Shown here in pieces: positions 3,817 through 53,529 of a stretch of 64,000 nucleotides of DNA. The position numbers and the translations under genes were made by a program. Source of the stretch: Vicinamibacterales bacterium (lineage in GTDB: Bacteria > Acidobacteriota > Vicinamibacteria > Vicinamibacterales > UBA8438). Each line of letters opens with the position of its first letter. Position 1 is the stretch's first letter. Below the pieces are notes generated by a model. That model ran no database searches and was not told where the DNA came from. It saw only the letters and a program-made list of their open reading frames with translations. The stretch covers positions 3,328,524 to 3,392,523 of the forward strand of contig OY759970.1 in assembly GCA_963662965.1 (NCBI GenBank). The letters run 5' to 3'.

Positions 3817-4725
3817 ATGACGACACAGCGAACACTTAGACGTTCCGTCTCCTGCTCGGGTATCGGCCTACACTCGGGGCAGAAAGTCACCCTTCGACTC
3901 AAGCCTGCTCCGATCGATCACGGGATTCGCTTCAAACGACTCGATCTCGACGGTCTTGAGGTTTCCGCGACAGCTGAGCGGGTCGCGAGGATGAACTACG
4001 CGACCGAGTTGGCGCAGGATGCGGCTTCGGTTGGCACGGTCGAGCATCTGCTCGCGGCGCTGGTGGGACTCGGCGTCGATAACGTGAGCATCGAGTTGAA
4101 TCAGGCCGAAGTGCCGATCATGGACGGGAGCGCCGCGTCGTTCGTCTACTTAGTCCATGAAGCCGGTATCCACACGCTCAAGTCGCCTCGACGTTTTCTC
4201 AAGGTGGTGCGACCCATCACGCTGTCGCGCGGTGACAAGCGGATCGCGGTGTATCCGTCGGATTACTTCAAGGTCACCTACAGCATCAGCTTCGACCATC
4301 CGTTGCTGCGGCACCAATCCCGAACCCAACGTGTGACGGAGGATTCCTTCATCGAGGAGATCGCGCCGGCGCGCACGTTTGGTTTCCTCAAAGAGGTCGA
4401 ACAGCTTCGGCAAAAGGGGCTCGCCCTGGGTGGCTCGCTGGACAACGCGATCGTCCTGGGTGAGACAGGTGTCCTCAACGACTCGTTACGATTCGAGGAT
4501 GAGTTCGTGCGACACAAGATCCTCGACGTGATCGGCGACCTCGCGTTGGTCGGTCACCCGATCATCGGTCACGTTGTCGCGCACCGCGGCGGACATGCGC
4601 TCCACGCGAGATTTGCCCAGAAGATTCTTGATGATGTCGACGCCTGGCGGCTCGTCGAGTCGTCGGTTGACCCGGCGGACGACGCCCCCGCTTCGATCAA
4701 GGTCACCGTGCCCGCCAGCTCCTAG
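3817..4725 (+). CDS. lpxC: UDP-3-O-acyl-N-acetylglucosamine deacetylase
   Basis: MTTQRTL... N-terminus, GxGLHSG, PIMDGSA and HRGGHAL motifs. I prefer ATG 3817 over the TTG at 3793 in the ORF track. Confidence 0.92.
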   Translation: MTTQRTLRRSVSCSGIGLHSGQKVTLRLKPAPIDHGIRFKRLDLDGLEVSATAERVARMNYATELAQDAASVGTVEHLLAALVGLGVDNVSIELNQAEVPIMDGSAASFVYLVHEAGIHTLKSPRRFLKVVRPITLSRGDKRIAVYPSDYFKVTYSISFDHPLLRHQSRTQRVTEDSFIEEIAPARTFGFLKEVEQLRQKGLALGGSLDNAIVLGETGVLNDSLRFEDEFVRHKILDVIGDLALVGHPIIGHVVAHRGGHALHARFAQKILDDVDAWRLVESSVDPADDAPASIKVTVPASS

Positions 4726-4889
4726 TGGCCTGTAACAGCTGAATCAGTAACACTCCGCGGGCGTGGGGCATCCCGCCTGCCTGCGTTACTCCTCGGTCAC
4801 AAATGCCAGACTTTCTCCCTCGTCGCGCCTTGCCAGCTGGGTGCCGCGCGCCGCGGAGTGGTACTGATTCAGCTGTTACAGGCCACTAG
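4722..4889 (-). repeat. family A palindromic interspersed element, copy A1
   Basis: Arms 4722-4760 and 4851-4889 are complementary at 38 of 39 positions. Interior blocks are shared with A2-A6. Confidence 0.9.
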
Positions 4890-6700: not shown

Positions 6701-7297
6701 ATGTTGGTGGCCATCGAAGGATTGGACCAGAGCGGGAAGGAAACCCAGGCGCAGCGGTTGCGCGACCACGTCAGAGCGGAAGGACACAAGTCCCGCGTCG
6801 TTTCGTTCCCCGACTACGGAACCTCAATCGGCGAAGAGATCGCCCGTGCGCTCCAGGGCGAGCGAGAGTATGGACCGGAGGCGATGCAGCTCCTCTACGT
6901 CGCGAACCGGTTCGAGCGCAAGGCTGACATCGACCGGTGGCACGACGCCGGCCTCGTGGTGCTGTTCGACCGCTACGTCGCGTCGAGCATCGCCTACGGC
7001 GAGGCGCAAGGGCTCGACCCGGCGTGGCTGACGACGCTTCAGGTGTATCTACCCCAACCGGACCTCACGCTCCTGCTCGACATCGCGCCCGAGACCGCCG
7101 TGAGCCGCAAGACGACCGGGCGCGACCGGTATGAGCAAGATCTGACGATGCTCCAGCGTGTCCGAGCAAGCTACCTCCGCCAAGCCGAACATCCCCAATG
7201 GATGCGCGTCGACGGAGAGCAGCCGAAGGATTCGGTCGCGGCCGCGCTCGCGACAGCCATCGCGCCGCACCTAGCGGCGGGCAGGAGCCCGCGGTGA
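6701..7297 (+). CDS. tmk: thymidylate (dTMP) kinase
   Basis: IEGLDQSGKETQ P-loop, DRY motif, about 198 aa. The last 4 codons plus the stop lie in repeat A3. Confidence 0.88.
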   Translation: MLVAIEGLDQSGKETQAQRLRDHVRAEGHKSRVVSFPDYGTSIGEEIARALQGEREYGPEAMQLLYVANRFERKADIDRWHDAGLVVLFDRYVASSIAYGEAQGLDPAWLTTLQVYLPQPDLTLLLDIAPETAVSRKTTGRDRYEQDLTMLQRVRASYLRQAEHPQWMRVDGEQPKDSVAAALATAIAPHLAAGRSPR

Positions 7298-7457
7298 AAG
7301 TCGCGCTGCATTCGACCGACGATGCATCCGGCAAGGGCCCTTGTTGGTCTTCCATGTAGCGGGGTCGCATACTGTCGGTATTCTCCCTCGTCCCGCCTTG
7401 CCAGGCCGGGCGCCTCGCCGGTCTCGGTGCCACGCGCGACTTTCACCGCGGGCTCCT
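7283..7457 (-). repeat. family A element, copy A3
   Basis: Perfect 24-nt arms (7283-7306 / 7434-7457). Core CGGTATTCTCCCTCGTCCCGCCTTGCC. Confidence 0.9.
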
Positions 7458-8201
7458 AAGATGAGCTGACGGGCCGGTGGCCGGCGCCACGCTGAGGGCC
7501 CGCACGCTTCTCGCCCCCGCGTCGACCAGCACGGACGCACACGCCTCGACGGTCGCTCCGGTCGTCACGACGTCGTCTACCAAGAGGATGCGACGTCCGC
7601 GAATGGCCGCGGCGGTGCGGCGTCCGCCGCGCCATTCCCTGAGCCTGAACGCGCCGCCGACGGCGCGCAGACGGTCGCCGCGCGCCAGTACTGCCTGTGG
7701 GCGCGTGTGTCGCGTGCGGCGGAGCGCGTTGACGACCGGCGAGTCGAGACCGGCCGCCAAGTCGGCCGCTTGATTGAACCCGCGTCGCCAGCGCCGCAGC
7801 GGATGCAGCGGCACCGGCACGATGAGGTCGGTGTCCGAGAGCCAAACCTGGCCCGCGGTGCGCATCAGCTGCGTGAGTGGGACCGCGAGCGTTCGCCGGC
7901 CACCGTACTTGAGCGCATGCACGATCGCGCGCAAGGTTTCGTCATGTAGACTGACCGTTCGGCGCGGGGTTGTGAGTCCGGCGGAGCGGGTGCAGGACAC
8001 GCAGTATGCGGGCGGGGCTGCCGCGGCCCACAACGGGATGGCGATGCCGTAGAGATCGCAGACCGGTGGTTCGATTCGTGCGACCCGCTGCCAACAGTCG
8101 ACGCACATCCTACCGCGAGAGGGCGCAACCAGTAGTTCCTCGCAGACCGCGCACCGTGGTGCCCACGCCACCGCCAGCAGGGCGTCGACGACGTGTCGCA
8201 C
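7443..8201 (-). CDS. comF: ComF family phosphoribosyltransferase-like protein
   Basis: N-terminal CxxC...CxxC, and a C-terminal PRTase motif ILLVDDVVTTGATV. I chose GTG 8201, because upstream of it the long ORF overlaps rsfS. The last codons lie in repeat A3. Confidence 0.8.
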   Translation of the reverse strand: MRHVVDALLAVAWAPRCAVCEELLVAPSRGRMCVDCWQRVARIEPPVCDLYGIAIPLWAAAAPPAYCVSCTRSAGLTTPRRTVSLHDETLRAIVHALKYGGRRTLAVPLTQLMRTAGQVWLSDTDLIVPVPLHPLRRWRRGFNQAADLAAGLDSPVVNALRRTRHTRPQAVLARGDRLRAVGGAFRLREWRGGRRTAAAIRGRRILLVDDVVTTGATVEACASVLVDAGARSVRALSVAPATGPSAHLRSPR

Positions 8202-11253: not shown

Positions 11254-12090
11254 CTATCTGAGCATGGTCCGCGTGCCCCGGATGCTCTGGTCGGCCAGCG
11301 CCCCGAGAAATGAAGGCAGCAGGCGGTCCATTAGCTCAAAATACGACGAGAGCGCCGGCGAGTTGTGGGAGACGTCGTACAGCACCTCTTCCCGGTGGCG
11401 TTCCGTGTGGAGCGTGACCCCGGTTCCGCCATCGATGAAGATGAACTTGGGGCTCAGCACGAATCCCTTCCGGTCGCGATAGGCCCGCATCGGTACCACC
11501 CGTCGCCGTCCGAAGTCATCGTAGATCTCGCGTTCACGCGCCACCATGCCGGAGCGCTGATGAGAAGTGAAGTAGACCGTGCCGGTGACGATCAGCGGAC
11601 TCTGATGTTCCTCGCCGAGCTGCCGCCAGTAGCTCACGTTGGCGAAGATCGACTCGTAGGCCTCGAGTTCTTCCTCACTGAGAGTCTCGTCCTCTTCCCC
11701 CTCGACATCGTCCTGGCCGTTGTCGTCCTGGGCGGAGAGCGGCGCGCCACTCGTCGTGCGGCCGAGCCCATCGCCGCTGGCCGCGTCTTGGTCGGCCAGC
11801 ACGTCGCCTTCCAGCTCGGCGATCGCCAGGAGATCGAGCACTTCGGCATCGATGACGTCGAGGCGTGATTCGTTGCGCAGCTGGCTGCGTAGCAGACGCG
11901 CCGTCTCGAGATTCGTGTCGACTTCGCTGGTCCCGCCGGCCAGAAAGCCGGCGACGAGTATGCGCTGGAATCGCGCGATCTCCAGCTTTGGCTGAAGTGG
12001 GGTCTCGATCGGCACTTCATAGGAGTTCGTGCATGCCGAGACGCCGAGAAGAAAGAGCGCGCTAACGGTCGTTTTCTGAAAGGCGGTCAT
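11254..12090 (-). CDS. hypothetical lipoprotein with an acidic central region
   Basis: MTAFQKTTVSALFLLGVSAC lipobox. The start lies inside the long ORF-track ORF and overlaps the 3' end of the TPR gene by 29 nt. Confidence 0.6.
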   Translation of the reverse strand: MTAFQKTTVSALFLLGVSACTNSYEVPIETPLQPKLEIARFQRILVAGFLAGGTSEVDTNLETARLLRSQLRNESRLDVIDAEVLDLLAIAELEGDVLADQDAASGDGLGRTTSGAPLSAQDDNGQDDVEGEEDETLSEEELEAYESIFANVSYWRQLGEEHQSPLIVTGTVYFTSHQRSGMVAREREIYDDFGRRRVVPMRAYRDRKGFVLSPKFIFIDGGTGVTLHTERHREEVLYDVSHNSPALSSYFELMDRLLPSFLGALADQSIRGTRTMLR

Positions 12091-12466
12091 AGATTTCCCT
12101 GAAGAGGTCGTAGTTCTGTTGAATATTAATGTCGTTCGGGGCGAGGTCGAGCGCCTCTTCGTAGGCCTCGAGCGCCTCGTCGAACATCCCCTTCTGCTCG
12201 TACGCGATGCCGAGGTTGTTCCAGGCCGCAGGATACGACGGATCGATTTCCGTGGCGCGCTTCCAGCGATAGGTCGCCTCATCCCAGAGCTCGCGCTGCG
12301 CCACTTTCATTCCGAATTCGACCTGCGCTCGCGCGTCGTCACGCACATCAGCCGAAAGGGTGGGCGCGGAAGCGCCAACGAGGGTGATGGCAAGAACAGT
12401 CAGAATGGTCGCAGCCCGTAGTGAAAGCCCCACTGCATTCGACCGGCGCTGCATTCCGTCTGCCAT
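12062..12466 (-). CDS. small secreted TPR-repeat protein
   Basis: Signal-peptide-like LRAATILTVLAITLVGASA, then TPR motifs (AWNNLGIAYEQKGMFDEALEAYEEAL). Candidate starts are 12466, 12454 and GTG 12433, all of them inside repeat A4. Confidence 0.65.
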   Translation of the reverse strand: MADGMQRRSNAVGLSLRAATILTVLAITLVGASAPTLSADVRDDARAQVEFGMKVAQRELWDEATYRWKRATEIDPSYPAAWNNLGIAYEQKGMFDEALEAYEEALDLAPNDINIQQNYDLFREIYDRLSENDR

Positions 12467-12583
12467 CGTTGCTCCTCGGTCAAATACTGCCGGTATTCTC
12501 CCTCGTCACGCCTCGTCCTGGCCGGCCGCTACCTTATTCAACTGGGGTCTCGATGCAACGCGGGGTTTCACCACGGGCTGCGA
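12409..12583 (-). repeat. family A element, copy A4
   Basis: Imperfect 34-nt arms homologous to those of A3. Core CGGTATTCTCCCTCGTCACGCC. Confidence 0.85.
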
Positions 12584-12852
12584 ACTCGTACGGGACGTAC
12601 CCCGAGTGAATCACGGTTGATCGAAATATAGCCAGGTCGTGCGGCTTGGGCAAGTGTCTGGGGAGAATCACTCCAACCTCAAACTAAGATAGCAAGAGGC
12701 GTGCCGTCGGTCCGGTGCCGACGGTGTATTTGCCGCGTCCTCGCGCCCGTCTCACATCGAGAAAAGTGCGTACTGACACACTCAGTGTGACGCTTGGGCG
12801 CGCGGTCCGGGTTCGCCGGCCGTGGTCCGCTTCTTGCGATAACCAGTCCGCC

Positions 12853-16441: not shown

Positions 16442-16444
16442 ACG

Positions 16445-16716
16445 TCAGACGGGGCGTGCGGCGACCAAGCTTAGACTGGGGGAATATCGCGCTCGGCCGA
16501 ACGGTCGAGCCTCGCGCGCTTTCCCCAGACCCCCTCGCTCGCTCACTCGTGGGGACCCCGAATGCCCCACTCCGTTCGCTAGCGTATGGTGTGGGACAGC
16601 CGAGTCATTCGAAGTACGATCAGGGCGCGCACGGCGCGCCCCCGCCGGCACGGAGTGGGGCGAAAGGGTCCCCGCGAGTGCTGGCCGGTGGGGTCGGGGC
16701 CGTAGGCCCCGTCTAG
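16445..16716 (+). repeat. family B element B1 (X hairpin + full Y module)
   Basis: X hairpin 16476-16528. Internal arms 16544-16575 / 16650-16680. GGGCGCGC-ACG-GCGCGCCC at 16623-16641. Terminal GGGGCC-GTA-GGCCCC at 16696-16710. Confidence 0.9.
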
Positions 16717-16719
16717 ATT

Positions 16720-18129
16720 ATGGTCACAATCATCGGCGGTGGATTGGCCGGCAGCGAGGCGGCATGGCAGGCCGCTTCGCGCGGCGTCCGGGTTTCCCTT
16801 CACGAAATGCGACCGGTGCGCATGACGGCGGTGCATCGTACCGACCGATTGGCGGAGCTCGTCTGTAGCAACTCGTTCCGCGGGGACAAGCTCGAGCATG
16901 CCGTGGGGCTTCTCAAAGAAGAGATGCGGCAGCTCGACTCCCTGGTCATGCGTGTGGCCGACGCGACCCGAGTGCCGGCGGGAGGGGCGTTGGCGGTCGA
17001 CCGCGATCGATTCGCCGAGGGGGTGAGCTCGGCACTCCACGCCGAGCAGCGGATCGAGATCCATCGGGAGGAGGTCGACCACCTTCCAGAGCCGGCTGGT
17101 ACGACCAAACCGGTCATCGTCGCCACCGGACCGCTGACGTCGCCGCGACTGTCGGCCGACGTCACCGCGCTCATCGGTCGTGAGCAGCTGTACTTCTTCG
17201 ACGCGATCAGTCCGATCGTGCACGCAGAGTCGATCGACCACGGGAGAGTGTTTCGGGCGTCGCGCGCCGGACGCGGGAAGCCTGTCGAGGACGCCGCGCC
17301 TGGACGCGCATGCGGGGACGACACAGGAGACGGTGATTACCTGAACTGTCCGATGACCGCCGACGAGTACGGTCGCTTCTATGACGCGCTGACCACGGCC
17401 GAGCTCGCCGAGGTGCACGATTTCGATCGAACGCCGTTCTTCGAGGGGTGTCTCCCGATCGAAGTGATGGCCCATCGTGGTGTCGACACGCTTCGGTTTG
17501 GACCGATGAAGCCGGTTGGCCTGGTCGATCCGAGCACCGGCCGGCGGCCGTACGCGGTGGTCCAGCTCCGCCAAGACAACCTGGCGGCCGATCATTTCAG
17601 CCTGGTCGGGTTTCAGACGCAGCTCAAGTGGCCAGAGCAACGGCGGGTGCTCCGTCTCATCCCGGGACTCGAGCACGCCGAGTTCGTACGACTCGGCATG
17701 ATTCACCGCAATACCTACATCAACGCGCCGACCGTACTCACACCGACGTGGCAAATGCGGAGCCGGCCAGACGTGTTCTTTGCCGGCCAGCTCTCCGGCG
17801 TCGAGGGATACGTCGAGTCTGCCGCGTCGGGTCTTGTCGCCGGCATCAATGCCGCCGCCCTCGCGCGCGGCGAGGTGAGCCGCGCGCTTCCCCGCACGAC
17901 AGCGATTGGCGCGCTGGGGTACTACGTGTCGCACGCGGCCGCCGAGAACTATCAGCCGACAAACATCGCGTACGGTCTGATCCCGTCGCTCGACAACCCG
18001 CCGCGCGGCCGTCAGGCGAGGCGCGGGGCGCTTGCGGCCCGCGCCCTGGCCGACCTGGCCGCGTGGCGGTCGCGCGGGTGGGGGGCGGACCATGATCAGA
18101 CCAGGGGAATATCACCCTCGGTCGCATGA
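16720..18129 (+). CDS. trmFO: methylenetetrahydrofolate-tRNA-(uracil54-C5)-methyltransferase
   Basis: VTIIGGGLAGSEAAWQ FAD motif and Gid/TrmFO-like length. The last 12 codons are encoded by repeat B2. Confidence 0.92.
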   Translation: MVTIIGGGLAGSEAAWQAASRGVRVSLHEMRPVRMTAVHRTDRLAELVCSNSFRGDKLEHAVGLLKEEMRQLDSLVMRVADATRVPAGGALAVDRDRFAEGVSSALHAEQRIEIHREEVDHLPEPAGTTKPVIVATGPLTSPRLSADVTALIGREQLYFFDAISPIVHAESIDHGRVFRASRAGRGKPVEDAAPGRACGDDTGDGDYLNCPMTADEYGRFYDALTTAELAEVHDFDRTPFFEGCLPIEVMAHRGVDTLRFGPMKPVGLVDPSTGRRPYAVVQLRQDNLAADHFSLVGFQTQLKWPEQRRVLRLIPGLEHAEFVRLGMIHRNTYINAPTVLTPTWQMRSRPDVFFAGQLSGVEGYVESAASGLVAGINAAALARGEVSRALPRTTAIGALGYYVSHAAAENYQPTNIAYGLIPSLDNPPRGRQARRGALAARALADLAAWRSRGWGADHDQTRGISPSVA

Positions 18130-18306
18130 CGGAGTCGCGGGCGCTTCCCCCGGACCCCCCTCGCTCGCTTGCGTATGTTGGGCGTAGCCGGCTTGTTCGA
18201 AGTACGAGCGGGGCGCGCAGGGCGCGCCCCAGCCGGCACGGAGTGGGGCAAATGGGGTCCCCACGAGTGCCGGCGGCGGGGTTCGGGGCCGCAGGCCCCG
18301 TCTAAG
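18094..18306 (+). repeat. family B element B2 (X + Y, with a 37-nt internal deletion relative to B1)
   Basis: Collinear with B1 except for loss of the left internal arm. The terminal hairpin is present. Confidence 0.9.
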
Positions 18307-18318
18307 TAAGACGGACTC

Positions 18319-19235
18319 ATGCAGCAGCACGTGCCGGCGTTTCTCGAGTTCCTGCGGCTGAATCGCAATGTGTCGCGCCACACCGTGCGCGCCTACGGCA
18401 GCGACCTGAAGCAGTTCTTCGCGTTTGCCAACGAACGGCTCCGTCACCCGCTCGAGGCGGCTGATTTTGACCACCGTCTCGTCCGCGCGTTTCTCGGCAT
18501 GCTCTACGAAGAGGGCAAATCGCGCGCGTCGTCGGCACGGAAGCTCGCGACCATTCGGTCGTTCGCGCGATATCTACGGCGCGAAGGGCACCTCGAGCGC
18601 GATCTCAGCGCCCTGGTGTCGACGCCGAAGCTCGAGAGGAGGATGCCAGCGTACCTCGATCCAGATGAGGTCGCCGTACTCCTCGAGTCGCCTGACGCCG
18701 CAACCCCGCTCGGTCGCCGAGACCGCGCGATTCTCGAGCTGTTCTACGCGTCCGGCTTGCGGTTGAGCGAGCTTGTCGGCCTCGATCTCGATGATGTGAA
18801 CCTGAGCGGGCGACTCGTCCGTGTGCTCGGCAAGGGCGGGAAAGAGCGGATCGTGCCGTTCAACCGAACCACCGCGGCCGCCATACGCGTCTATCTCGGT
18901 GATCGACGCGCCCTCGTCAAAGGACGCGCCGCGAAGGCGGAGCCGTCACGCCGTCGCCGACGCGTCGCGCCGCGCGAGCCGCTGTTCGTGAATTATCGTG
19001 GGGGACGGCTTTCGAGCCGCAGCGTCGACCGGCTGGTGCGGAGATACGTCATCCGGTCGAGTGCGCGGCTCGCCATCAGCCCGCACGCGCTCCGCCATTC
19101 ATTCGCGACGCACTTGCTCGAACGGGGTGCCGACCTGCGGGCGATTCAGGAGCTGCTTGGACACGCGCGGGTCAGCACGACGCAGCGCTATACGCATGTG
19201 CGCAACTCACAAATCACCGAGCTCTACCGGCGCAC

Positions 19236-31382: not shown

Positions 31383-31572
31383 CTAGTGGCCTGTCCAAGC
31401 CAAAGCGACAGCGCTCCGCGGGCGGGGCATCCCGCAAGGGCTGGCGTTATGACCTCGCCTGGTGGGGTCACAAATGCCCAATTTGCTCCCTCGTCGCACC
31501 TTGCGGGGGCCGGGCGCGTCTGTCGATCAGCGACCACGGACTGCTGTCGATTTGGTTCGGACAGGCCACTGG
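31383..31572 (-). repeat. family A element, copy A2
   Basis: Same termini and interior blocks as A1. Over the 31-nt arms there are 26 Watson-Crick pairs plus 3 G-T pairs. Confidence 0.9.
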
Positions 31573-41100: not shown

Positions 41101-42357
41101 GGGACCATGCGGCTGATGGCGCAGATTGGCGGTTCGTTCCAGGAACCGGTTCTGACCGGTGAGGTGCGGATCGCGAACGGCCGGCTTCGCCATTTCTCGC
41201 TGCCGCATTCGCTCGACGCGCTCGACGGACGCGTCGTCTTCGAGCCTGGGGGCGTGCGGCTTGATGAACTGACGGCACAGTTTGGTGGGGGGGCGGTCCG
41301 CTTCGGGGGTCGGATCGGCCTACAGGGATATCGGATTGGCAACCTCGGCGTGACCGCCAGCCTCGAGGACACGACTTTGCGCCTCGAGGATATCCGGTCT
41401 CGCGTCGACGCGGAGCTGACGCTGCGCGGCCCGATCGAGGCTCCGACGCTCGGCGGCGTCGTCAACGTCCAAGATGCCATCTGGCTCCGGCTCTTCCAAT
41501 CGCCCACCAGGCTGATTGACCTCTCTGGGGGGGACTCGACGCCGGCCACCGATGCGGAGACGAGCATCCCGCTGCAGTACGACCTGCGCATCTCCGCGCC
41601 CTCGAGTCTGCGGATCTCGGACAATCGCGCACAGATCGTCGCCAGCGCCGAGCTTGCCCTGCGGGGAACCTACGCCCGACCGACGCTGGTGGGAAACATC
41701 GAGATCGAGCGGGGGCAGGTCTACTTCGAGGGCAATCGATACCGGGTGACGCGGGGCAATGTCGGCTTCGCGAACCCGACCGAGATCGAGCGGTTCTTCG
41801 ACGTTGAGGCGGAAACCGACATCCGCGTGCCTGGTCAAACGTATCGCGTCACTATCGGGTTGAGCGGGACGGTCGACCGTCTGGCGCCACCGACGCTTGA
41901 GTCCGACCCGCCGCTCCAGCAGTTCGAGATTATCGGATTGCTGCTCGGCGATGTCCGTGACCCGCAGCAGGCGGAGATCCGGACGCTGCGGGCCCGTGAA
42001 GCCTCACAGCAGGAGCTCCTGCAGGCGGTGGGCGCTCGGCTACTTACGAATCCGATTTCGTCCGGAGTCGGCGGCGTCATGCAGCGCTCGTTTGGCGTCG
42101 ACACCTTCGAAATCGTCCCCTCGCTCGACGATTCGGCTGCGCACCAGTCGACGCAGTTGATCCCGACGGCGCGGGTGCTGATCGGCCGACGTATTTCCGA
42201 CCGCGCGCACGTCACATTTTCTCGCGCGGTCAGCGGAAACAATCAGGACCTCATTGTGATCCTTGAGTACGACGCGAGCGACCGCCTCTCGTGGGTGCTG
42301 TCGCAAAACGAGGACCGGACCTACGCGCTCGACTTCCGGGTCAGGCACGCCTTCTGA
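38101..42357 (+). CDS. tamB: translocation and assembly module protein TamB-like (AsmA/DUF490 family)
   Basis: 1418 aa. N-terminal TM anchor, long beta-rich repetitive body. Placed immediately upstream of, and overlapping, an Omp85 gene. Confidence 0.8.
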   Translation: MADERLPDDREPETPPAPMESDAAAEATGAVTAPRPWWRRPWVRLRRYSRRTVIVLIALAAAGLVSVVSIDLGPSLRAQAEQQLSNQIDRPVSIGRFGTYLLPGRFLIEDLVIGGPNPGDRPFFVGDRIVISTAWLPLLLNREFLVDSVDLDGWRMLVESFEGGEHTFPPFVGRRDDDGSTTESTVKLGGGDEPDPENDAAATDAAEDEEEGRRLFVTTVQYLRAHNGEFVYDDYGVPWSIVARNIDLTMTKSTGYGGQASFHGGTVQIGDFEPMTTDWEATYEVDGGLVEFTRMDLEMDGLEAVLDGTVDMLNWPSADIQITESSIDAPTMKEVFFAKDNFTTTGDATYTGEFHLFDGGRELTGTFVSENFTFGDLDFQPIDGDLVWTRDRFEITRARSGFYGGDLQFSYAMKPLGDEEPTIATLATEVDGMAVAPLFDALGLTGARPLGALGGEVFLEWPLSSFADRRGHASLNVTPEDGVPLQSRGVRPPSIRVGWGYAGQPFESDGEPWRFPLGSEIDLTFGPDGIELEPSWMATPLTAVEFVGQTAWGDESRIPFEVVSADWQESYRLMASIMTAFGRPTGEIAVAGYGSMSGVMHGAFLAPRIETTFDGDDVRAWNVDWGHGAGEMVVEGGFLDVTDGLFRDATSALRVDGRFAFGSPPTGEDDINASFELDGVPAQNLRDAFGIEGYLIDGPLYGDFRLYGEYERPFGFGRLRIGAGTAYGESFDQTDAGLRFDGEGVWLDGLTVRKGAGEITGAMYVRWNGTYSVNADARGLDLATSSLFDRPGPGVSGLLDFSISGVGAFEEPRYQIRGTMTDLAIAGADVGQVTGRLDVQDDVMALELEAASPTLAVSGSGRIELTDAARSELRFRVTNTTLDPFVRTLQPDMPEATTMVASGTILVQGPLADVDQLGVDATVEQLDLTLFDYAVTNDGPIRLLFDRNVLQVAEMHLQGEGTALDLSGEVSLADDRFTLNANGDASLGILQGFFPDVRGRGTMRLMAQIGGSFQEPVLTGEVRIANGRLRHFSLPHSLDALDGRVVFEPGGVRLDELTAQFGGGAVRFGGRIGLQGYRIGNLGVTASLEDTTLRLEDIRSRVDAELTLRGPIEAPTLGGVVNVQDAIWLRLFQSPTRLIDLSGGDSTPATDAETSIPLQYDLRISAPSSLRISDNRAQIVASAELALRGTYARPTLVGNIEIERGQVYFEGNRYRVTRGNVGFANPTEIERFFDVEAETDIRVPGQTYRVTIGLSGTVDRLAPPTLESDPPLQQFEIIGLLLGDVRDPQQAEIRTLRAREASQQELLQAVGARLLTNPISSGVGGVMQRSFGVDTFEIVPSLDDSAAHQSTQLIPTARVLIGRRISDRAHVTFSRAVSGNNQDLIVILEYDASDRLSWVLSQNEDRTYALDFRVRHAF

Positions 42358-45320
42358 TGTTGCTCCCTCGTCACGCCGTGCACGGGCCCGGCGCGATCTG
42401 TGCCTGTCTCGTCCTCTGGGCGGGCCCGGCGGCGGCCGGGGCGGAGGTCGACGAATTCATCGGCCAGCGTGTGGTCGAGGTCGAGTTCGCCACAGATGGG
42501 ATCCCGATTAACGACCCCGCCGTTCGCGAGCTGGTGGAAACGACCGCCGGCGAGCCGCTCGCGATGCGCGAGGTCCGTGAGAGCTTGGCGCATCTCTTCA
42601 GCCTCGGTCGCTACGGCCACGTTGCGGTCGACGCCTACCCACGCGCCGGCGGTGTGGCGCTGCTGTATGAGCTGAGGCCGTTCGAGCTCGTCGAGCGCAT
42701 CGAGCTCTCCGGTAATCGGGTGCTCGCCGCCGACGACGTGCGGCGCGTCGTCGTCCAGCGCCACGGCGAGGTCTTCCCCGCCAGCGCGGCCGCCGCGGTG
42801 GCCGATACCGTGCGCGCGTACTACGCGGAGCGCGGTTTTCTGTCACCGCGGGTCGACGCGGAGCTGCGCGGGTCGGCGACCGAGCGCACCCTTCGCTTGA
42901 CGATAGTTGCTGGCGCGCGCGCCCGCGTCAATCGGTGGTTCATCACCGGCGTCGCCTCGGCGTTGCTCAACACGCGGCTGCGAGCTCGTCTGGGCCTCGT
43001 CGACGGCGACGTCTACGACGGCGCGAGGCTCGATCAGCGGTTGAGCGAGTACGAGGGCGAGCTCCGCGCGCTGCAGTACTACGAAGCGCGTCTCTCGCAC
43101 ACGGTGGAGCGACGCACAGACGCGGACATCGACGTCCGTTTGAACATCCTGCGCGGACCGCGCATCACGGTGACGCTGAGCGGCGACGAGGTGCCGGACG
43201 CGCGGCTCGGCGATCTGGTGCCGGTCGGACGCGAGGCGAGCGTCGACGAGGACTTGCTTGAGGATGCCGACCGACGGATCGCGGCGCACTTGCGGTCGCT
43301 CGGCTACCGCGACGCGGACGTGACGCACACGGCCGACGGGACCGCGGACGAGCTGTCGATCGTCTTCGCGGTGACCCGCGGCCCGTTCTATCAGGTGGTT
43401 GCCGTGCGGATTCGAGGCAACGCGAGCGTGCCGACCGAGGTGCTCCTGCCGGTGGTCAACATCACGTCTGGCGATCCGCTCATTGTCTCCGACGTGGACG
43501 CCGGGTTGGCCGCCATCGAGGAGCGCTACCAGCAGCTCGGCTATGCGACCGTGCGCGCGACCAGAACCTTCGCCGACATCGCGACCGGTGGCGCTGCGGG
43601 TACCGTGATGCAGACCGTCGATATCGACATCGTCGAAGGGCCGCGGATGACCATTGCCGCCTTGGTGTTCGACGGGGTCGAGGCGTGGCCGTTTGACAGA
43701 CTCGAGGAGACGGTCGCCGCACGTATCGGCGAGCCTTTCTACGGACCGCAGGTGAGCGACGACCGCGATGCGCTGCTGTCGCTCTATCTCAACGACGGGT
43801 ACGAGCAGGCCGTGGTGGTCGTCGAGCCGCAGTTTGCGGACGACCTGCGCACCGTCGACCTGGTCTTCCGCGTCGACGAAGGGCGTCAGGTACTCGTCGA
43901 TCACGTGTTGATCGTCGGTAACCGTCGGGTCGACTCCGAGACGATTCGTGGCGAGCTCGCCCTCGCGCCCGGCGACCCGCTTGGTCTCGACGACGTCGCG
44001 GAGACCCGTCGCCGGCTCAACGCGCTGGGGATGTTTCGTGGACTCGATATCCGGGAGTTTAGCCATGGTTCTGTCGACCGACGCGATGTCATCATCGAAG
44101 TGGAGGAGGCGCCGGCGACGACGCTGGCGTACGGCGGCGGGCTCGAAGTGTCGCAGCGGATTCGGCGTGACTCGGGCGACGAGGGAAGCGCCGCGGTGGA
44201 GCGGATCGAGTTTGCGCCGCGCGGATCGTTCCAGATCGGGCGCCGCAACCTGTGGGGCAAGAACCGGTCGATCAACTTGTTTACCCGTGTGAGTGTCCGG
44301 CGTAAGAACGATCCATCCGAGCCGGGTTCGGCTGACGCGGCCCGAACGCTTGGGTTTAACGAGTACCGGGTGTTGGGGACCTATCGCGAGCCGCGGTCGT
44401 TCCGGCTGCGCTGGGATGTGCTGATGTCGGGTTACGTGGAGCAGGCGATTCGACCCGGGTTCGATCTGTTCACCCGCGGTGTCACGGCACAGGTGGTGGC
44501 GGGATCCGGTGATAGGACGAGCACGACGCTCGGCTACCGCCTGGGGAGCAACGACACGTCGAATCGACAGCTGGACCCCGAGGACAGCAATATCGTCGAC
44601 CGACTGTTTCCGGAGGTGCGACTGTCGTCATTCCGGCTGAGCCGGCTTCGGGACACCCGCAACGATCCGTTCGATCCGACACGCGGCACGGTCCTCACCG
44701 CCGAAACCGAGCTCGCCGCTCGCTCGATCGGGTCCGCGGTCGGGTTTACCAAGACATTTCTGTCCGGTTCGTTCTTCCGCGAGCTGCGCGACGCGTCTCG
44801 TCTCGTGTTTGCCGCCAGTGCACGTGTCGGTCTGGCGTGGGGTTTTCCGCAGACGTATCATCTCGAGGGCCCCGGCGGACCGATGGAGGTGTCGCAGACG
44901 CTCGACCTGCCGATCAGCGAGCGCTTTTTTGCCGGAGGGGATAACACCGTGCGTGGATTCGCCCTCGACCGCCTGGGCGATCCGCGTGAGGAACCGGGCG
45001 GCACCATCGATCAGGACGGCTTTCCGCAGGGCGGTAACGCCATGCTCATCTTTAATACCGAGCTACGTGTGCGGCTGACGCGCGCCGTCGGACTCGTGAC
45101 GTTTCTCGACGCCGGGAACGTTTATGATGATGTGCAGCACGTGAGCCTGCGTCGTATCCGCGGCGGCGCTGGCTTCGGGGTACGGTACAGTTCGCCAGTC
45201 GGACCGATTCGCGTCGACCTCGGCTTCAAGCTCGGTGAGCGGCACTTCTTTGGTGACGAGACGAGTCGGACGCAAGAACCGCTCACCGCGCTTCACATCA
45301 GCATCGGCCAAGCGTTTTAG
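42357..45320 (+). CDS. Omp85-family outer membrane protein assembly factor (BamA/TamA-like)
   Basis: Signal peptide, several POTRA-like units, C-terminal barrel with RGF/GGD-type motifs (FFAGGDNTVRGF) and a terminal ...ISIGQAF. ATG 42357 overlaps the tamB TGA. Confidence 0.85.
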   Translation: MLLPRHAVHGPGAICACLVLWAGPAAAGAEVDEFIGQRVVEVEFATDGIPINDPAVRELVETTAGEPLAMREVRESLAHLFSLGRYGHVAVDAYPRAGGVALLYELRPFELVERIELSGNRVLAADDVRRVVVQRHGEVFPASAAAAVADTVRAYYAERGFLSPRVDAELRGSATERTLRLTIVAGARARVNRWFITGVASALLNTRLRARLGLVDGDVYDGARLDQRLSEYEGELRALQYYEARLSHTVERRTDADIDVRLNILRGPRITVTLSGDEVPDARLGDLVPVGREASVDEDLLEDADRRIAAHLRSLGYRDADVTHTADGTADELSIVFAVTRGPFYQVVAVRIRGNASVPTEVLLPVVNITSGDPLIVSDVDAGLAAIEERYQQLGYATVRATRTFADIATGGAAGTVMQTVDIDIVEGPRMTIAALVFDGVEAWPFDRLEETVAARIGEPFYGPQVSDDRDALLSLYLNDGYEQAVVVVEPQFADDLRTVDLVFRVDEGRQVLVDHVLIVGNRRVDSETIRGELALAPGDPLGLDDVAETRRRLNALGMFRGLDIREFSHGSVDRRDVIIEVEEAPATTLAYGGGLEVSQRIRRDSGDEGSAAVERIEFAPRGSFQIGRRNLWGKNRSINLFTRVSVRRKNDPSEPGSADAARTLGFNEYRVLGTYREPRSFRLRWDVLMSGYVEQAIRPGFDLFTRGVTAQVVAGSGDRTSTTLGYRLGSNDTSNRQLDPEDSNIVDRLFPEVRLSSFRLSRLRDTRNDPFDPTRGTVLTAETELAARSIGSAVGFTKTFLSGSFFRELRDASRLVFAASARVGLAWGFPQTYHLEGPGGPMEVSQTLDLPISERFFAGGDNTVRGFALDRLGDPREEPGGTIDQDGFPQGGNAMLIFNTELRVRLTRAVGLVTFLDAGNVYDDVQHVSLRRIRGGAGFGVRYSSPVGPIRVDLGFKLGERHFFGDETSRTQEPLTALHISIGQAF
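42358..42405 (-). repeat. family A core fragment (A6) embedded at the tamB/Omp85 junction
   Basis: TTGCTCCCTCGTCACGCCGTGCACGGGCCCGGCGCG matches the A2 core TTGCTCCCTCGTCGCACCTTGCGGGGGCCGGGCGCG at 29 of 36 positions. Confidence 0.6.
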
Positions 45321-45960
45321 TGCGCTGCTGTCGGCCCTCCTGTGGGCGGCACCGCTCGGAGCCGTTGCCCAGAGCCTCGACCGCATCGTGGCCGTCGTCG
45401 CCGGCCACGTCATCTTGGCCTCCGACGTGAGGGCCTTCCTCGAGTTCGGCCTCATCGAGGTCGAGGCTTCTGGCTCTGTCTCTGACTCTGAAGAAGACGA
45501 GCGCACGCGCGCCGGATGCGCCCTGACGCGGCTGATCGAGCGACGTCTCGCGCTCGACGAGGTCGACCGATATCGGGTGGCCGCGCCGCGGCCAGAACAG
45601 ATCGATCGCGAGCTCGCTGCCCTCCGCGGTCGCTTCAGCGATGAGGAGGCGTTTGCGGATCTCCTGGCGGCGGTGGGGCTCGGACTGCCGGACCTCAGGC
45701 AGATTCTGCGGGACAATGTCCGGCTGGAGGCGTATCTCGCTGGACGCTTTGGTTCGGCGGATCGGCTGAGTGAGTCGGAGCTGCGCGCCTACTACGCCGC
45801 CAACCGTGACGACTTCACCGACGCGGGGCGCGGCGTCGCGTTCGACACGGTTCGTGCGCAGGTCCAAGCCCGGCTGTGGGCGGAGCGGCGCGCGGCCCTC
45901 GTCGAGAACTGGACTGCCGGTCTCGCTCTCCGCGGGGACGTGACCCGGTTTGAGCCATGA
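45235..45960 (+). CDS. periplasmic SurA N-terminal-domain-like chaperone
   Basis: Signal-like LSALLWAAPLGAVAQS, then DRIVAVVAGHVILASDV and helical repeats. The start is uncertain (GTG 45235, TTG 45250 or GTG 45253) and all candidates overlap the Omp85 3' end. The stop lies at the edge of repeat B3. Confidence 0.55.
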   Translation: MSGTSLVTRRVGRKNRSPRFTSASAKRFSALLSALLWAAPLGAVAQSLDRIVAVVAGHVILASDVRAFLEFGLIEVEASGSVSDSEEDERTRAGCALTRLIERRLALDEVDRYRVAAPRPEQIDRELAALRGRFSDEEAFADLLAAVGLGLPDLRQILRDNVRLEAYLAGRFGSADRLSESELRAYYAANRDDFTDAGRGVAFDTVRAQVQARLWAERRAALVENWTAGLALRGDVTRFEP

Positions 45961-46113
45961 TCAGACCGGGGGAATATCGCGCTCGATCGAGCAACGGAGT
46001 CTCGCGCGCTTCCTGGTCAGACGGGGCCTGCGGCTCCGAACCCCGCCGCCGACACTCGCGGGGGGCCCCTTTGCCACGCTCCGTGCCGGCGGGGGCGCGC
46101 CGTGCCCGCCCTG
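45959..46113 (+). repeat. family B element B3 (X module followed by an inverted Y module)
   Basis: The X module is collinear with B1/B2. 46017-46110 is the reverse complement of the B1/B2 Y module. Confidence 0.88.
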
Positions 46114-46261
46114 ATCTCAGACTCCCCCATCCGGGCTCAGCGAGAGCGATTGTTTCCCGGCCTGCGTGGGTGCCGGTCGGACATATCCCGAAAGAAACCG
46201 TCTGCCTTTAGCGAGACGAAGCACCCCTGTATCTGAGGGCGGCTGGATGTTTCCCGAGGCG

Positions 46262-50160: not shown

Positions 50161-50171
50161 TCCTTATTCTC

Positions 50172-50192
50172 GACGGGGCTGGCGGCCCCGTC
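50172..50192. repeat. family B terminal-hairpin-like unit (B5)
   Basis: GACGGGGC-TGGCG-GCCCCGTC immediately after the nrdJ stop, followed by TGAG as at other Y ends. Confidence 0.55.
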
Positions 50193-50209
50193 TGAGATTG
50201 GACCGGCGT

Positions 50210-50230
50210 GGGGCGTTCGGGGCCCCTTTT
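50210..50230 (+). terminator. intrinsic terminator candidate after nrdJ
   Basis: GGGGC-GTTCGGG-GCCCC followed by TTTT. Confidence 0.55.
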
Positions 50231-50306
50231 GCAGTACGCTGGCAGTCTCAGTGTTCCTCGTCGTGAATGGACGGCGCCGGAACCCGAGCGATGAGGGGGC
50301 CGTACG

Positions 50307-52109
50307 ATGTCCACGCATTCTCGCGCTTCACGATATGTGCTGGTGATCGCGATTGCCGTCACCACGTTCACATCAGCGCAGGTAACCATTTCCGCGCAGT
50401 CCTCCGGCGCGTTTGTTCCCGTCACCGACGCGATGCTCCAGGAGCCGGCCCCCGGTGACTGGTTGATGTGGCGCCGCACGCTGGACAGCTGGGGCTACAG
50501 TCCACTGGACGAGATCGACCGAGACAACGTCGGTGCCTTGCGCATGGTCTGGTCGCGCGCGCTCACGGACGGGTTCCAGTCGGGCACACCGCTGGCCTAC
50601 GGCGGCGTGATGTACATGCCGAACCCGAACGATGTCATTCAGGCGATCGATGCGGCGACCGGCGATCTCATCTGGGAGCACCGCCGTCAGGTTCCCGACG
50701 ACGTCAACGAGTACTTGGGCGGTGAACTCTCGACGAACAATCGAAATATCGCGATCTACGACGACCTCATTATCGACACGAGCGTCGACGACCATGTCTT
50801 TGCCCTCTCGGCCGAGACGGGTCAGATGGAGTGGGAGACGCAAGTCCTAGACTACAAAGTCAATCCGGCCACCCAGGGCTCCGGTCCGATCATCGCCGAC
50901 GGCAAGGTGATCACGGGACGCAGTTGCTCGGCCAAGGGAGGACCGGAAGCGTGCGTCGTGACCGCGCATGACGCGACGACCGGGGCCGAGTTATGGCGGC
51001 GGCGTCTGATTCCAGGACCAGGTGAGCCGGGCGACGAAAGCTGGGGCGACGTCCCGTTCGAGGAACGAGTTCACGTCGGCGCGTGGATGGTGCCGAGCTA
51101 TGACCCGGTCCTCAATCTCGTCTACGTCGGAACCTCCGTCACCGCCCCGGCCCCGAAGTTCATGCTCGGAGGTGTGAACAACAAGCATCTCTATCACAAC
51201 TCCACGCTCGCGCTCGACGCCAACACCGGGGACATCGTGTGGTACTACCAGCATCTCAATGATCATTGGGACCTCGATCATCCGTTCGAGCGATTGCTGG
51301 TCGATACCGTGGTGGCGCCCGATCCGTCGGCGGTGAGCTGGATCAATCCGCGGTTGCGGACCGGGGAGACGCGGCGGGTCGTCACCGGTATTCCGGGAAA
51401 AACCGGGGTGGTGTATACCCTCGACCGTGCGACGGGGGAGTTCTTGTGGGCAACGCCGACCGTCACCCAGAACGTCATCAGCGACATCGACGGGGCAACC
51501 GGAGCAGTGTCGGAAAACTCGGAAGTGGTCTTCAGCGCATTGGGGCAGGAGGTCTTTGCCTGCCCGACCTGGAACGGCGGGAAGGACTGGGAGGCGGGCG
51601 CCTACAGCCCCCTGACCAATACGATGTACATGCCACTGCGGAACACCTGCGCTCGGATGATGGCCGCCACGGAGTTCGAAGACCGACCGAACGAGCCCAA
51701 CGAGAGTCGCGCGGCGACCTACGCGATTGCCTACCGCCACCAGCTGGCTCCTGGCACCGACAATGCCGGCACCGTGCGGGCGATTTCGGTAGAAACCGGC
51801 GAGACGGCCTGGCTCTATGAGCAGCGAACCGCGACCATGTCACTCGTGGCGACCGGGGGTGGACTTATCTTTGGTGGTGACGTCAATGGGCGATTTCGGG
51901 CGCTGGACCACGAGACGGGAGAGATACTGTGGGAAATCAACCTCGGGTCGTCGGTCACTGGGTTCCCCATCACGTACGCGGTCGATGGTCGGCAGTATGT
52001 GGCGGTAAGTACTGGCTCTGGGGGGACGTCGGCGCACTTTATCGGTTTGACGCCTGAGATTCGCCCTAGCTCGGGGAACAACCTCTTCGTGTTCGCCTTG
52101 CCAGATTAG
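50307..52109 (+). CDS. PQQ-dependent dehydrogenase (quinoprotein, 8-bladed propeller)
   Basis: Signal peptide. Repeated A(L/I)DxxTG(E/D)xxW blades: AIDAATGDLIWEH, ALSAETGQMEWET, AHDATTGAELWRR, ALDANTGDIVWYY, ALDHETGEILWEI. Confidence 0.85.
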   Translation: MSTHSRASRYVLVIAIAVTTFTSAQVTISAQSSGAFVPVTDAMLQEPAPGDWLMWRRTLDSWGYSPLDEIDRDNVGALRMVWSRALTDGFQSGTPLAYGGVMYMPNPNDVIQAIDAATGDLIWEHRRQVPDDVNEYLGGELSTNNRNIAIYDDLIIDTSVDDHVFALSAETGQMEWETQVLDYKVNPATQGSGPIIADGKVITGRSCSAKGGPEACVVTAHDATTGAELWRRRLIPGPGEPGDESWGDVPFEERVHVGAWMVPSYDPVLNLVYVGTSVTAPAPKFMLGGVNNKHLYHNSTLALDANTGDIVWYYQHLNDHWDLDHPFERLLVDTVVAPDPSAVSWINPRLRTGETRRVVTGIPGKTGVVYTLDRATGEFLWATPTVTQNVISDIDGATGAVSENSEVVFSALGQEVFACPTWNGGKDWEAGAYSPLTNTMYMPLRNTCARMMAATEFEDRPNEPNESRAATYAIAYRHQLAPGTDNAGTVRAISVETGETAWLYEQRTATMSLVATGGGLIFGGDVNGRFRALDHETGEILWEINLGSSVTGFPITYAVDGRQYVAVSTGSGGTSAHFIGLTPEIRPSSGNNLFVFALPD

Positions 52110-52124
52110 CAGCCATCTCATAAA

Positions 52125-52250
52125 GGCGCCGGCATTCGGCCGCCGATGCATCCCGCCAGGGGCGGCGTTGGGCGTTGCATGAGCGCGGTCGAATACTACC
52201 GGTATTCTCCCTCAGTCTTTGGCCGGGAGCGATATTCCCCTGGTCTGATC
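52125..52250 (-). repeat. family A element A5, fused to a family B X-module end
   Basis: Core CGGTATTCTCCCTCAGTCT, followed by the reverse complement of GATCAGACCAGGGGAATATCG at 52230-52250. Confidence 0.8.
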
Positions 52251-52580
52251 TTGGCCCCATCCGAAGTAGGCGAGGGCGACTAGCAGCGCGCTAAATCCGG
52301 CGCGCGCCAGTTGGGGCGCGAGCAAGAGCTCACCGTAGACGTGCGGATCATTGTGGAGGCTGATCGACTGAAGCCCGAGGAGGCCGCTGACGGCCAGCGC
52401 CAGTCCGCCGGGGAGCGAGACCCGCACCAACGCCGCGGCCAGCGCGAGGACGCCGCCCGAGAGCATCCGCCACAGGTTGGCCCACCACTCGAGCGTGCCC
52501 GAGCCGATGAGGTCGGCGACACCGACGACAACGTCGTACACGCCGTAGACCAACATCCCGAGCGCCGCGGCTCTCAGCAT
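52212..52580 (-). CDS. small integral membrane protein (about 4 TM)
   Basis: 122 aa, hydrophobic. The last 14 codons (QDQTRGISLPAKD) lie in repeat A5. Confidence 0.5.
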   Translation of the reverse strand: MLRAAALGMLVYGVYDVVVGVADLIGSGTLEWWANLWRMLSGGVLALAAALVRVSLPGGLALAVSGLLGLQSISLHNDPHVYGELLLAPQLARAGFSALLVALAYFGWGQDQTRGISLPAKD

Positions 52581-52638
52581 GCCCCCTCTTGTATCATGCC
52601 GCTTCGGTCAACGACGAGTGATGAATGACGAGTGACGA

Positions 52639-53529
52639 ATGCTGAATGCTAGCCTGCCGTCCGCGCGTCTGAACATGTCGACGGCAGCGGCGACCCTGCT
52701 CTCGGCCGTGATAGTCGCCGGGCTCGTCACATCCGCCGTCTCCACCCCCGCGTCGGCGACCGTCGCGACCCAGTCGGGCACCGACGAGTCGTTCGACCGG
52801 GTCCTGAATCTGTACGTGCGCGACGGATTGGTGTACTACGCCGCGCTCCGGGTCACGGACCGGACGCGCATCGACCAGTATGTCGATGCGCGTCGCGCCG
52901 CGCCGCCCGGCTTCGAGGGATGGTCGCCGTCGCGCCAGCTGGCCTTCTGGATCAACAGCTACAACGCGATCGTGCTGAAGACGGTGCTCGACCACTACCC
53001 GATCCGCGGGTCGTCACCGCTGTATCCGACGAACAGCATCCGTCAGATTGGCGGCGCCTTCGACCGGACGTCACACCAGATTGCCGGCCGACGGCTCACC
53101 CTCGACGAGATCGAGCAGTCGGTGTTGGCCTCGTTCGAAGATCCACGGGTCTTCCTGGCGCTGGGACGCGGCGCCGTCGGGAGCGGCCGGCTGCGGAGCG
53201 AGACGTACAGCGGAGCGACGCTCGACCTTCAGCTCGCGGCGGTCGTCGAGGAGTTCGCGACCGAACCGTGGGGCGTCGTCCTCGACCGACTGGGAGCCGT
53301 CGTGCAGGTGAACCCGATCTTCGGGTGGCGCGAGTCCGAGTTCGTCGCGGCGTATGCCGACCATGGCTGGACGGATTCTGGACGGACGCCGCTCGAGCGA
53401 GCGATTCTGAATCTGATCGAGCCGGTGCTGTTTCCCAGCGAGCGGGTGTTCCTCGCAAAGAACATGTTCAGCCTTGGATATCAGGAGTTCGATTGGCGTC
53501 TCAATGATCTGACCGGCGGGAGACCATAA
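52639..53529 (+). CDS. DUF547 domain protein, secreted
   Basis: Signal-like N-terminus. LAFWINSYNAIVLKTVL motif typical of DUF547. Confidence 0.7.
   Translation: MLNASLPSARLNMSTAAATLLSAVIVAGLVTSAVSTPASATVATQSGTDESFDRVLNLYVRDGLVYYAALRVTDRTRIDQYVDARRAAPPGFEGWSPSRQLAFWINSYNAIVLKTVLDHYPIRGSSPLYPTNSIRQIGGAFDRTSHQIAGRRLTLDEIEQSVLASFEDPRVFLALGRGAVGSGRLRSETYSGATLDLQLAAVVEEFATEPWGVVLDRLGAVVQVNPIFGWRESEFVAAYADHGWTDSGRTPLERAILNLIEPVLFPSERVFLAKNMFSLGYQEFDWRLNDLTGGRP

Follow-up and report, generated by a model that had tools for sequence, protein, structure and literature searches.

A join of two truncated repeats at the 3′ end of a small membrane-protein gene in a sponge-associated Vicinamibacterales genome

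The locus lies in a 64,000-nucleotide stretch of Vicinamibacterales DNA (the window) and comprises a ribonucleotide reductase gene, a gene for a PQQ-dependent quinoprotein dehydrogenase, a repeat copy designated A5, a fragment of a hairpin module designated X and, on the minus strand, the gene of a small membrane protein (Table 1). In relatives with 75-81% protein identity (L010-L015) 1-15 nt lie between the membrane-protein and reductase genes, which converge. The window has 2.1 kb at this place, containing a Y2-type hairpin that directly follows the intact reductase stop codon, the dehydrogenase gene, A5 and X. Since the two genes abut in the relatives, the dehydrogenase gene, A5 and X represent an insertion, and the A5/X join is located at its right-hand edge, a lineage-specific rearrangement breakpoint. 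Conservation of the membrane protein among 176 homologues, which are labelled Acidobacteriota, ends with ...YFGWG at residue 109 (position 52254), and past GWG the homologues carry unrelated hydrophilic tails of 3-30 residues. X begins exactly where this conservation stops. The membrane protein is encoded identically in several metagenome assemblies, including the MAG GCA_047515085.1, and the locus was detected in sequencing runs of sponge, marine and seawater metagenomes, among others.

Table 1. Features of the A5 locus and other copies of families A and B (positions are those of the window unless a locus is named)
Feature	Position	Strand	Remarks
Lineage-specific insert	50161..52109	+	Y2-type GC hairpin 50172-50192, promoter region, PQQ-dependent dehydrogenase gene 50307-52109
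Surviving target-site duplication of A5, TTA	52106..52108	+	TAA/TTA repeats flank family-A copies elsewhere, C-TWA-G
TAG stop of PQQ-dehydrogenase gene	52107-52109	+	overlaps the TTA of A5; the element starts with the G of TAG
Only remaining terminal arm (TIR) of A5, GCAGCCATCTCATAAAGGCGCCGGCA	52109..52134	+	resembles arms of A0, L035, L067 and L078
Family-A core fragment of A5	52135..52219	+	80% to A2; DNA depth; 20-mer
Unique junction bases between A and X fragments	52220..52229	-	part of CTCCCGGCCAAAGAC; single-copy depth
5′ fragment of X module, GGCCAAGATCAGACCAGGGGAATATCG	52230..52256	-	encodes (Q)DQTRGIS; 20-mer, blastn, profile
Small membrane protein gene	52212..52580	-	residues 1-109 conserved; residues 110-122 (52215-52253) repeat-encoded
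A0, decayed family A	L008 8757-8912		left of window
A1, intact family A	4722..4889	+	39-nt arms 97% complementary; fold z-score -11.6
A2, intact family A, between convergent genes	7283..7460	+	arms GGAGCCCGCGGTGAAAG; fold z-score -7.3
A3, partly decayed family A	12413..12584	+	arm overlaps start of TPR protein
A4, intact family A, upstream of lipoprotein gene	31383..31570	+	fold z-score -6.6
B1: X, partial inverted Y, Y	16463..16716	+	fills topA-trmFO spacer
B2: X 18087-18165, unique spacer, Y 18206-18304	18087..18310	+	
B3: X then inverted Y	45946..46116	+	

Several further observations concern the genes of this locus. In a sister strain (L134 2768-3590) the membrane-protein gene is interrupted by an 822-bp group II intron without ORF (Rfam RF02005, 128 bits), whose insertion point corresponds to window position 52433, and the dehydrogenase gene of this strain, which was called as two ORFs, is probably a pseudogene. 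Within the dehydrogenase gene of the window, short metatranscriptome unitigs of two runs reach a depth of 500-1300 over 51576-51626, compared to <10 in the rest of the gene. The last ~20 dehydrogenase codons (52049-52102) are found at 70-85x single-copy DNA depth in copies of ~86% identity, and this stretch resembles the right part of family A (CGCCTTGCCAG). We rejected the 3′ end of the dehydrogenase gene (CTCTTCGTGTTCGCCTTGCCAG) as part of an A element, due to its independent 70-85x depth and its ordinary ...NNLFVFALPD ending; the depth probably stems from a paralogue family of very large size in the sponge community. Upstream of the membrane-protein gene (~52600-52650) one RNA contig has an extra TGACGAG at 52625 among CACTCGT-like heptamers, which indicates copy-number variation in a short tandem repeat.

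The preliminary description of this DNA regarded A5 as a hybrid copy which, read on the minus strand, starts as the 5′ end of X and continues as the core of a second repeat, family A. Both assignments were confirmed. Direct reading identified 52256-52230 as the 5′ end of X, with GATCAGACCAGGGGAATATCG being the minus-strand read of 52250-52230. Exact copies of the 20-mer GATCAGACCAGGGGAATATC lie at 18094-18113 (B2) and 52231-52250, and a copy with one mismatch at 45959-45978 (B3); 0.01 matches are expected from shuffled sequences. Eleven bases past X the family-A core begins, with AGACTGAGGGAGAATACCGGTAGTATTCGACC (52218-52187) and CGGGATGCATCGGCGGCCGAATGCC (52155-52131). In sensitive blastn comparisons 52257-52211 is 79-83% identical to the X modules of B1, B2 and B3, and 52213-52122 is 80% identical to A2 (7389-7297) over 94 nt. 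Based on the exact 20-mer and blastn, A5 is a physical join of a real X fragment and a real family-A fragment. The interval 52125-52250 initially assigned to it is too narrow, since the A fragment extends from the TTA at 52106 to ~52219 and X to ~52256.

Family A comprises elements of ~160-190 nt with a conserved core of ~110 nt and inverted arms of 24-27 bp (median 27 bp in 67 full copies from other genomes, which measure ~162-185 nt and in which 1611 of 1783 arm positions form Watson-Crick pairs). Outside the GTG...CAC ends, 22 of these 67 copies have a perfect TAA or TTA on both sides. The C...G context was present in 22 of 28 flanking-repeat matches, essentially the same TAA/TTA copies, and most of the remaining copies differ by one base in the flanks or belong to a C-TA-G subfamily (TA in CTAG). 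A 3-bp TWA target duplication is known from Tourist-like MITEs of the PIF/Harbinger-IS5 lineage (PMC4482050), and the TWA duplication of family A in C-TWA-G is a signature of this lineage. With a length below ~300 bp, no transposase gene, many copies, inverted arms and target duplications, family A is a foldback MITE. It is apparently undescribed; a literature search for a 16-mer of the A core or for MITEs in sponge-associated Acidobacteriota retrieved no paper.

Family A is very abundant. The window together with a 9.3-kb left extension taken from locus L008 (73 kb in total) contains 6 copies. DNA unitigs from four runs, placed on 52040-52300, reach a depth of up to ~11,000 over 52139-52156 compared to 29 in the unique flanks, which corresponds to ~380 copy-equivalents. 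The core 20-mer TTCGGCCGCCGATGCATCCC was found at >116 loci of a genome collection, and nearly all of these loci belong to MAGs of Vicinamibacterales or Acidobacteria sampled from groundwater, soil and marine sites. Copies that are truncated, carry internal deletions or are nested occur frequently. As a separate observation, a second small hairpin (..CACCCCAACGCG..CGCGTTGGGGACCCC..) is nested in the variable A loop in L025, L041, L054, L062, L090, L122 and L131. Genes for an HNH endonuclease and an IS256-family transposase lie beside A0 (L008 6769-8665). A 17-mer near the A core (TTGCTCCCTCGTCACGCC) at 42343-42381 belongs to the signal-peptide codons of an Omp85/BamA-like protein, just past the TamB stop, and could be chance or an old remnant.

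Between copies the arms vary strongly, yet they stay complementary. RNAalifold assigned compensatory changes to 34 of 51 pairs of family A (24 of 24 in helix 1). In the alignment 93.2% of the paired cells are complementary, compared to 36-47% with the partners slid, and the covariation score of 0.438 exceeds the slid controls (≤0.092) and the shuffles (0.127), being reached by 0 of 500 shuffles. Arm mismatches of the G-T (70) and A-C (59) type are about equally common, and one-sided arm changes are very rare compared to 250 double changes. The strand-specific signature of an RNA, in which G-U but not A-C would be tolerated, is thus absent, and due to these two features the constraint on the arms looks like one acting at the DNA level rather than an RNA-specific one. 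Family A was rejected as a known RNA, as Rfam gave no match at gathering or E ≤ 1 thresholds. MHRRSNA-like and MPNLLPRR-like ORFs had raised the idea of a promoter or leader with a start codon, which was also rejected, since copies occur between convergent genes, carry target duplications and differ in position between relatives. In ~0.9 Mb no autonomous element of 350-2500 bp bounded by such arms and no transposase with matching ends was found, the sole element in this size range being a 452-nt family-A copy with a nested insert.

Measured against these copies, A5 is incomplete. What it retains is a single TTA, a single arm and ~80 nt from the start of the core, namely the order-wide 20-mer (52135-52154), a variable loop and GGTCGAATACTACCGGTATTCTCCCTC, and the core ends with ...GGTATTCTCCCTC (~52213; ...CCCTC), at the edge of which the TGA stop of the membrane protein is located (52212-52214, minus strand). 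The other half of the core is lost, and A5 has no strand that pairs with CCCGCC..., no GGGCGCCTCG segment, no further arm and no further TTA duplication. In their place are the initial 27-40 nt of an X module. The remaining arm resembles that of A0 (L008 ~8885-8912, in the left extension of the window) and those of L035, L067 and L078 (CTAGAACCCATCTCATAAACCACGCCGGCA), and no inverted partner for it is present in the window at ≤3 mismatches. An intact family-A MITE has both arms, both duplications, the full core and the family fold, and A5 is not such a copy. Its fold z-score of -0.6 on both strands is no better than that of shuffled sequence, compared to -6.6 to -11.6 for A1, A2 and A4. A5 is therefore probably a dead half-copy of a very abundant foldback MITE that abuts a truncated X.

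X is a hairpin module of ~75 nt that normally heads the X-Y elements of this lineage (family B). Profile searches detected six copies in the 73 kb. Y-type sequence follows X in five of them, and X is followed by A only at A5. The X fragment of A5 lacks the 3′ half, which closes the X hairpin in B1-B3, and its DNA depth is only ~2x single copy. Outside this lineage X was not found: exact-pattern scans with the X 20-mer gave 0 matches in the genome collection and only 2 in a metagenome collection, both low-GC chance matches, and profile searches gave 0 matches in 116 A-bearing loci of other Vicinamibacterales (829 kb). Y occurs in either orientation next to X in B1-B3, its sub-modules differ in copy number, and it ends in a GC hairpin (Y2, GGGGCCGCAGGCCCCGTC) with a CGTC tag that amounts to ~470 copy-equivalents by depth. 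As a short GC-rich stem-loop of high copy number that occurs in inverted pairs, Y2 qualifies as a CGTC-tagged REP. A gene for a RAYT-type tyrosine transposase was not found in the 73 kb read; CGTC REPs lack a dedicated transposase according to PMC3733652.

The topA-trmFO spacer (window 16441-16720) holds a B element here, an intact A-type element in one relative and only an arm-like remnant, CCCGTGGTGAAAGACGG, in another (comparison with L132 2303-2501 and L133 2337-2501); these differing contents indicate rapid repeat turnover at one site. B2 (18085-18330) is flanked on both sides by a near-direct repeat, CGGAC(T)CATG, and the right copy of this repeat restores the start codon of xerC, which overlapped trmFO in relatives.

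The preliminary description further proposed that A5 is evidence of one modular system shared by both families, which should be visible in further X plus A-core junctions. This was not borne out as far as the searches reached. Despite 6 A and 6 X copies there is one junction in the 73 kb, and none was found in related genomes. Over 52220-52228 the depth equals that of the single-copy flanks in all four DNA runs (29, 21.5, 31.2 and 8.66). The uniqueness of the junction is judged from unitig depth (≥85% likeness), 73 kb of direct sequence and related genomes, and applies to junctions similar enough to be seen there, as a strongly diverged second junction would escape these comparisons. According to our own arithmetic, 6 A and 6 X copies would share at least one spacer with a chance of ~45%, assuming ~65 intergenic spacers as estimated from typical gene density.

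These data bear directly on the idea that families A and B form one modular system, in which X, Y and A core are routinely recombined and A5 is one of the products. Mosaicism as such is real, given the two orientations of Y beside X and the different copy numbers of the Y sub-modules; small hairpins are nested within A loops in other genomes, and X and the A core have a loose motif, GACNRGGG(A)GAATA, in common. However, a system of this kind is hard to reconcile with a single X/A junction of single-copy depth, with the pairing of five of the six X copies with Y, with 116 A-bearing loci elsewhere that have no X, and with a chance of almost one half that one spacer is shared anyway. Furthermore, both the A and the X piece are truncated at the join, cut mid-module and not joined at module boundaries. 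We consider the modular system highly improbable. The junction is likely a one-off scar of a rearrangement between neighbouring repeats, and provides no evidence of a modular repeat system.

The similarity of X to parts of family A raises the question whether A5 is a hybrid at all. The X part of A5 could be a diverged native sub-terminal segment of A, with the X modules of B elements derived from such copies. It is found at the same relative position as CACCGAG..GCGCCCGGCC in A2, A0 and A4, CGC(T)CCCGGCC is common to A5, A2 and A4, and two pairs gave borderline scores in shuffle tests (B3 versus A2, z = 3.4, p = 0.01; X of A5 versus A3, z = 2.9, p = 0.02). However, these scores fail correction for multiple tests (24 tests), and the other z values are mostly <2. 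No signal was obtained against an A subfamily with a longer right part (z ≤2.5, mostly <1.5), for which nine copies from other genomes were picked by the GAGCGAGCGCG motif and eight were scored. In stretches of 20-40 nt the X of A5 shares 83-100% identity with the X of B elements, and no A copy comes near this level. The 116 A-bearing loci yield no match to the X profile, and A5 lacks the outer arm anyway. A homology of X and the right half of A is thus suggestive by eye, yet unproven in the shuffle tests, and a native origin of the X part appears very unlikely to us. Given the weak, position-matched resemblance, X and A might be distantly related.

As a third alternative, the X/A5 region could be under selection for a function rather than being a scar: it might act as a terminator, stabilise the mRNAs of the convergent genes by a 3′ structure, or encode a small RNA. 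Of the six X copies, five begin 0-25 nt from a stop codon whose gene is oriented like X, the exceptional copy being located in the left extension and facing away from the neighbouring gene; at B3 the TGA stop of gene 45388-45960 even lies inside the start of X, CCATGATC. In addition, the A core has a higher depth than the flanks in metatranscriptome unitigs, and the A5 region is identical in five assemblies. However, the X of A5 no longer has the 3′ arm of its hairpin, the region folds like shuffled sequence on both strands, and no Rfam match was obtained. An RNA depth of this kind is expected if hundreds of copies are read through and their sequences merge into common unitigs, and the contigs are strandless. 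In the sister strain (98% identity) this junction is present too and differs by 3 substitutions in ~150 nt, a divergence equal to the genome average of ~2%. Selection for such a function therefore seems extremely improbable, and we expect the hybrid to have no function of its own.

The preliminary description also stated that two unrelated proteins share a repeat-encoded C-terminus, DQTRGIS. The heptapeptide is indeed shared and encoded by X, but it is not the extreme C-terminus, as LPAKD and a stop codon follow in the membrane protein and PSVA and a stop codon in TrmFO. The minus-strand ORF 52212-52580 ends with ...GWGQDQTRGISLPAKD and the TrmFO ORF 16720-18129 with ...GWGADHDQTRGISPSVA. DQTRGIS or DQNRGIS was found among 360 fetched sequences only in these two proteins and their close orthologues. 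The homology of TrmFO to the Thermus enzyme (PDB 3g5q) ends at residue 451, and TrmFO relatives have ...AWR..GAD in common followed by varied tails. In two relatives trmFO and xerC overlap by 29 nt without any element there. In the window the two genes are separated by B2, and translation of trmFO runs 12 codons into X, of which 18094-18114 encode DQTRGIS. At both genes X adjoins an unconstrained C-terminus truncated at a repeat-associated break, and the identical heptapeptide is a by-product of this arrangement. It is shared since X is read in the same one of its three frames, which has a prior probability of one third.

Other repeats contribute to coding sequences as well. Tmk (thymidylate kinase; 6701-7297, plus strand) and a ComF-like protein (7443-8201, minus strand) both end with RSPR and a stop codon, due to both A2 arms supplying the last codons and the TGA stops. 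A TPR protein with a signal peptide (12062-12466, minus strand) begins within A3, whose arm and inner part cover its start codon and approximately its first 17 codons (MADGMQRRSNAVGLSL...). The overlap of A5 with a stop codon recurs at A1, whose terminal CTAG includes the TAG stop (4723-4725) of an LpxC-like gene, so that the TAG stops of the LpxC-like and the PQQ-dehydrogenase gene are both supplied by repeats. Repeats in this genome routinely provide stop codons, start codons and terminal residues. The DQTRGIS common to two proteins is an annotation-level by-product and not a shared domain, and gene callers and comparative proteomics in this clade will therefore see spurious "conserved" termini.

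We propose the following origin of A5. First, a MITE would have entered the TTAG that includes the dehydrogenase stop codon. Two neighbouring repeats may then have lost their inner halves through a deletion or illegitimate recombination between them, an event that would also have cost the membrane-protein gene its native tail. Translation continuing into X and the junction bases, up to the TGA at the edge of the A core, would have created the new 13-residue tail QDQTRGISLPAKD, in which QDQTRGIS is derived from X and LPAKD from the junction (codons formed by 52220-52229 and 52215-52219). This tail would have been tolerated because the C-terminal region is unconstrained in the membrane-protein family. 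In a separate event, insertion of B2 into the 29-nt trmFO/xerC overlap would have given TrmFO its HDQTRGISPSVA. We infer the order of insertion and subsequent deletion, of which no intermediate state was found.

No modular repeat system should consequently be deduced from the A5 hybrid, which is ordinary in itself; family A is the more interesting object. In this sponge-associated Vicinamibacterales genome whole intergenic spacers are built from two repeat systems, which also mark the edges of gene insertions. Family A could be used as a marker, and as a subject for examining how complementarity of the arms is preserved in foldback elements. The order-wide rod shape, the conserved core of ~110 nt, the hypervariable but always complementary stem and the hundreds of copies per genome also invite the view that family A is more than a selfish MITE, having a function as ssDNA or RNA or representing a new class of hairpin-propagated mobile elements, with A5 as a dead copy. 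We regard this as rather unlikely; family A might in that case act as a recombination, replication or regulatory signal.

Family A resembles Tourist-like MITEs in being short, non-coding, high-copy and foldback-forming, with terminal inverted repeats, flanking TAA/TTA repeats and a CTWAG-type target, and truncated or nested copies are common in it as well. It differs from them in that no autonomous element with the same ends was found in ~0.9 Mb, and in that the core is conserved order-wide (exact 20-mers) while the arms are hypervariable yet complementary, the reverse of the usual MITE, in which the ends are conserved and the interior varies. With one arm and one duplication, A5 itself falls outside the MITE definition. 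Y2 has its counterpart in REPs, among them CGTC-tagged REPs (PMC3733652), and in mosaic elements such as the BIMEs of E. coli and the NIMEs of Neisseria, being a short GC-rich palindrome that ends with CGTC and occurs singly, in inverted pairs, or as a composite with X and Y1 in intergenic elements. X is not a tagged REP, and the X/A5 join is a truncation and no regular mosaic.

Fusions of repeats to coding sequences, and the extension of gene 3′ ends by repeats, have been reviewed (PMC3184786, section 15). We compared the repeats of this genome with Rickettsia palindromic elements, pneumococcal BOX and RUP, Bordetella BRE and Neisseria Correia elements. In both groups, codons of a repeat join annotated proteins, extend or replace their 3′ (and 5′) ends, and add the same peptide to unrelated proteins. 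Unlike in those systems, the repeats here contribute only short tails of 4-13 residues in unconstrained regions, and in the two cases examined the native tail was replaced after a rearrangement, rather than a repeat being inserted in frame inside a domain.
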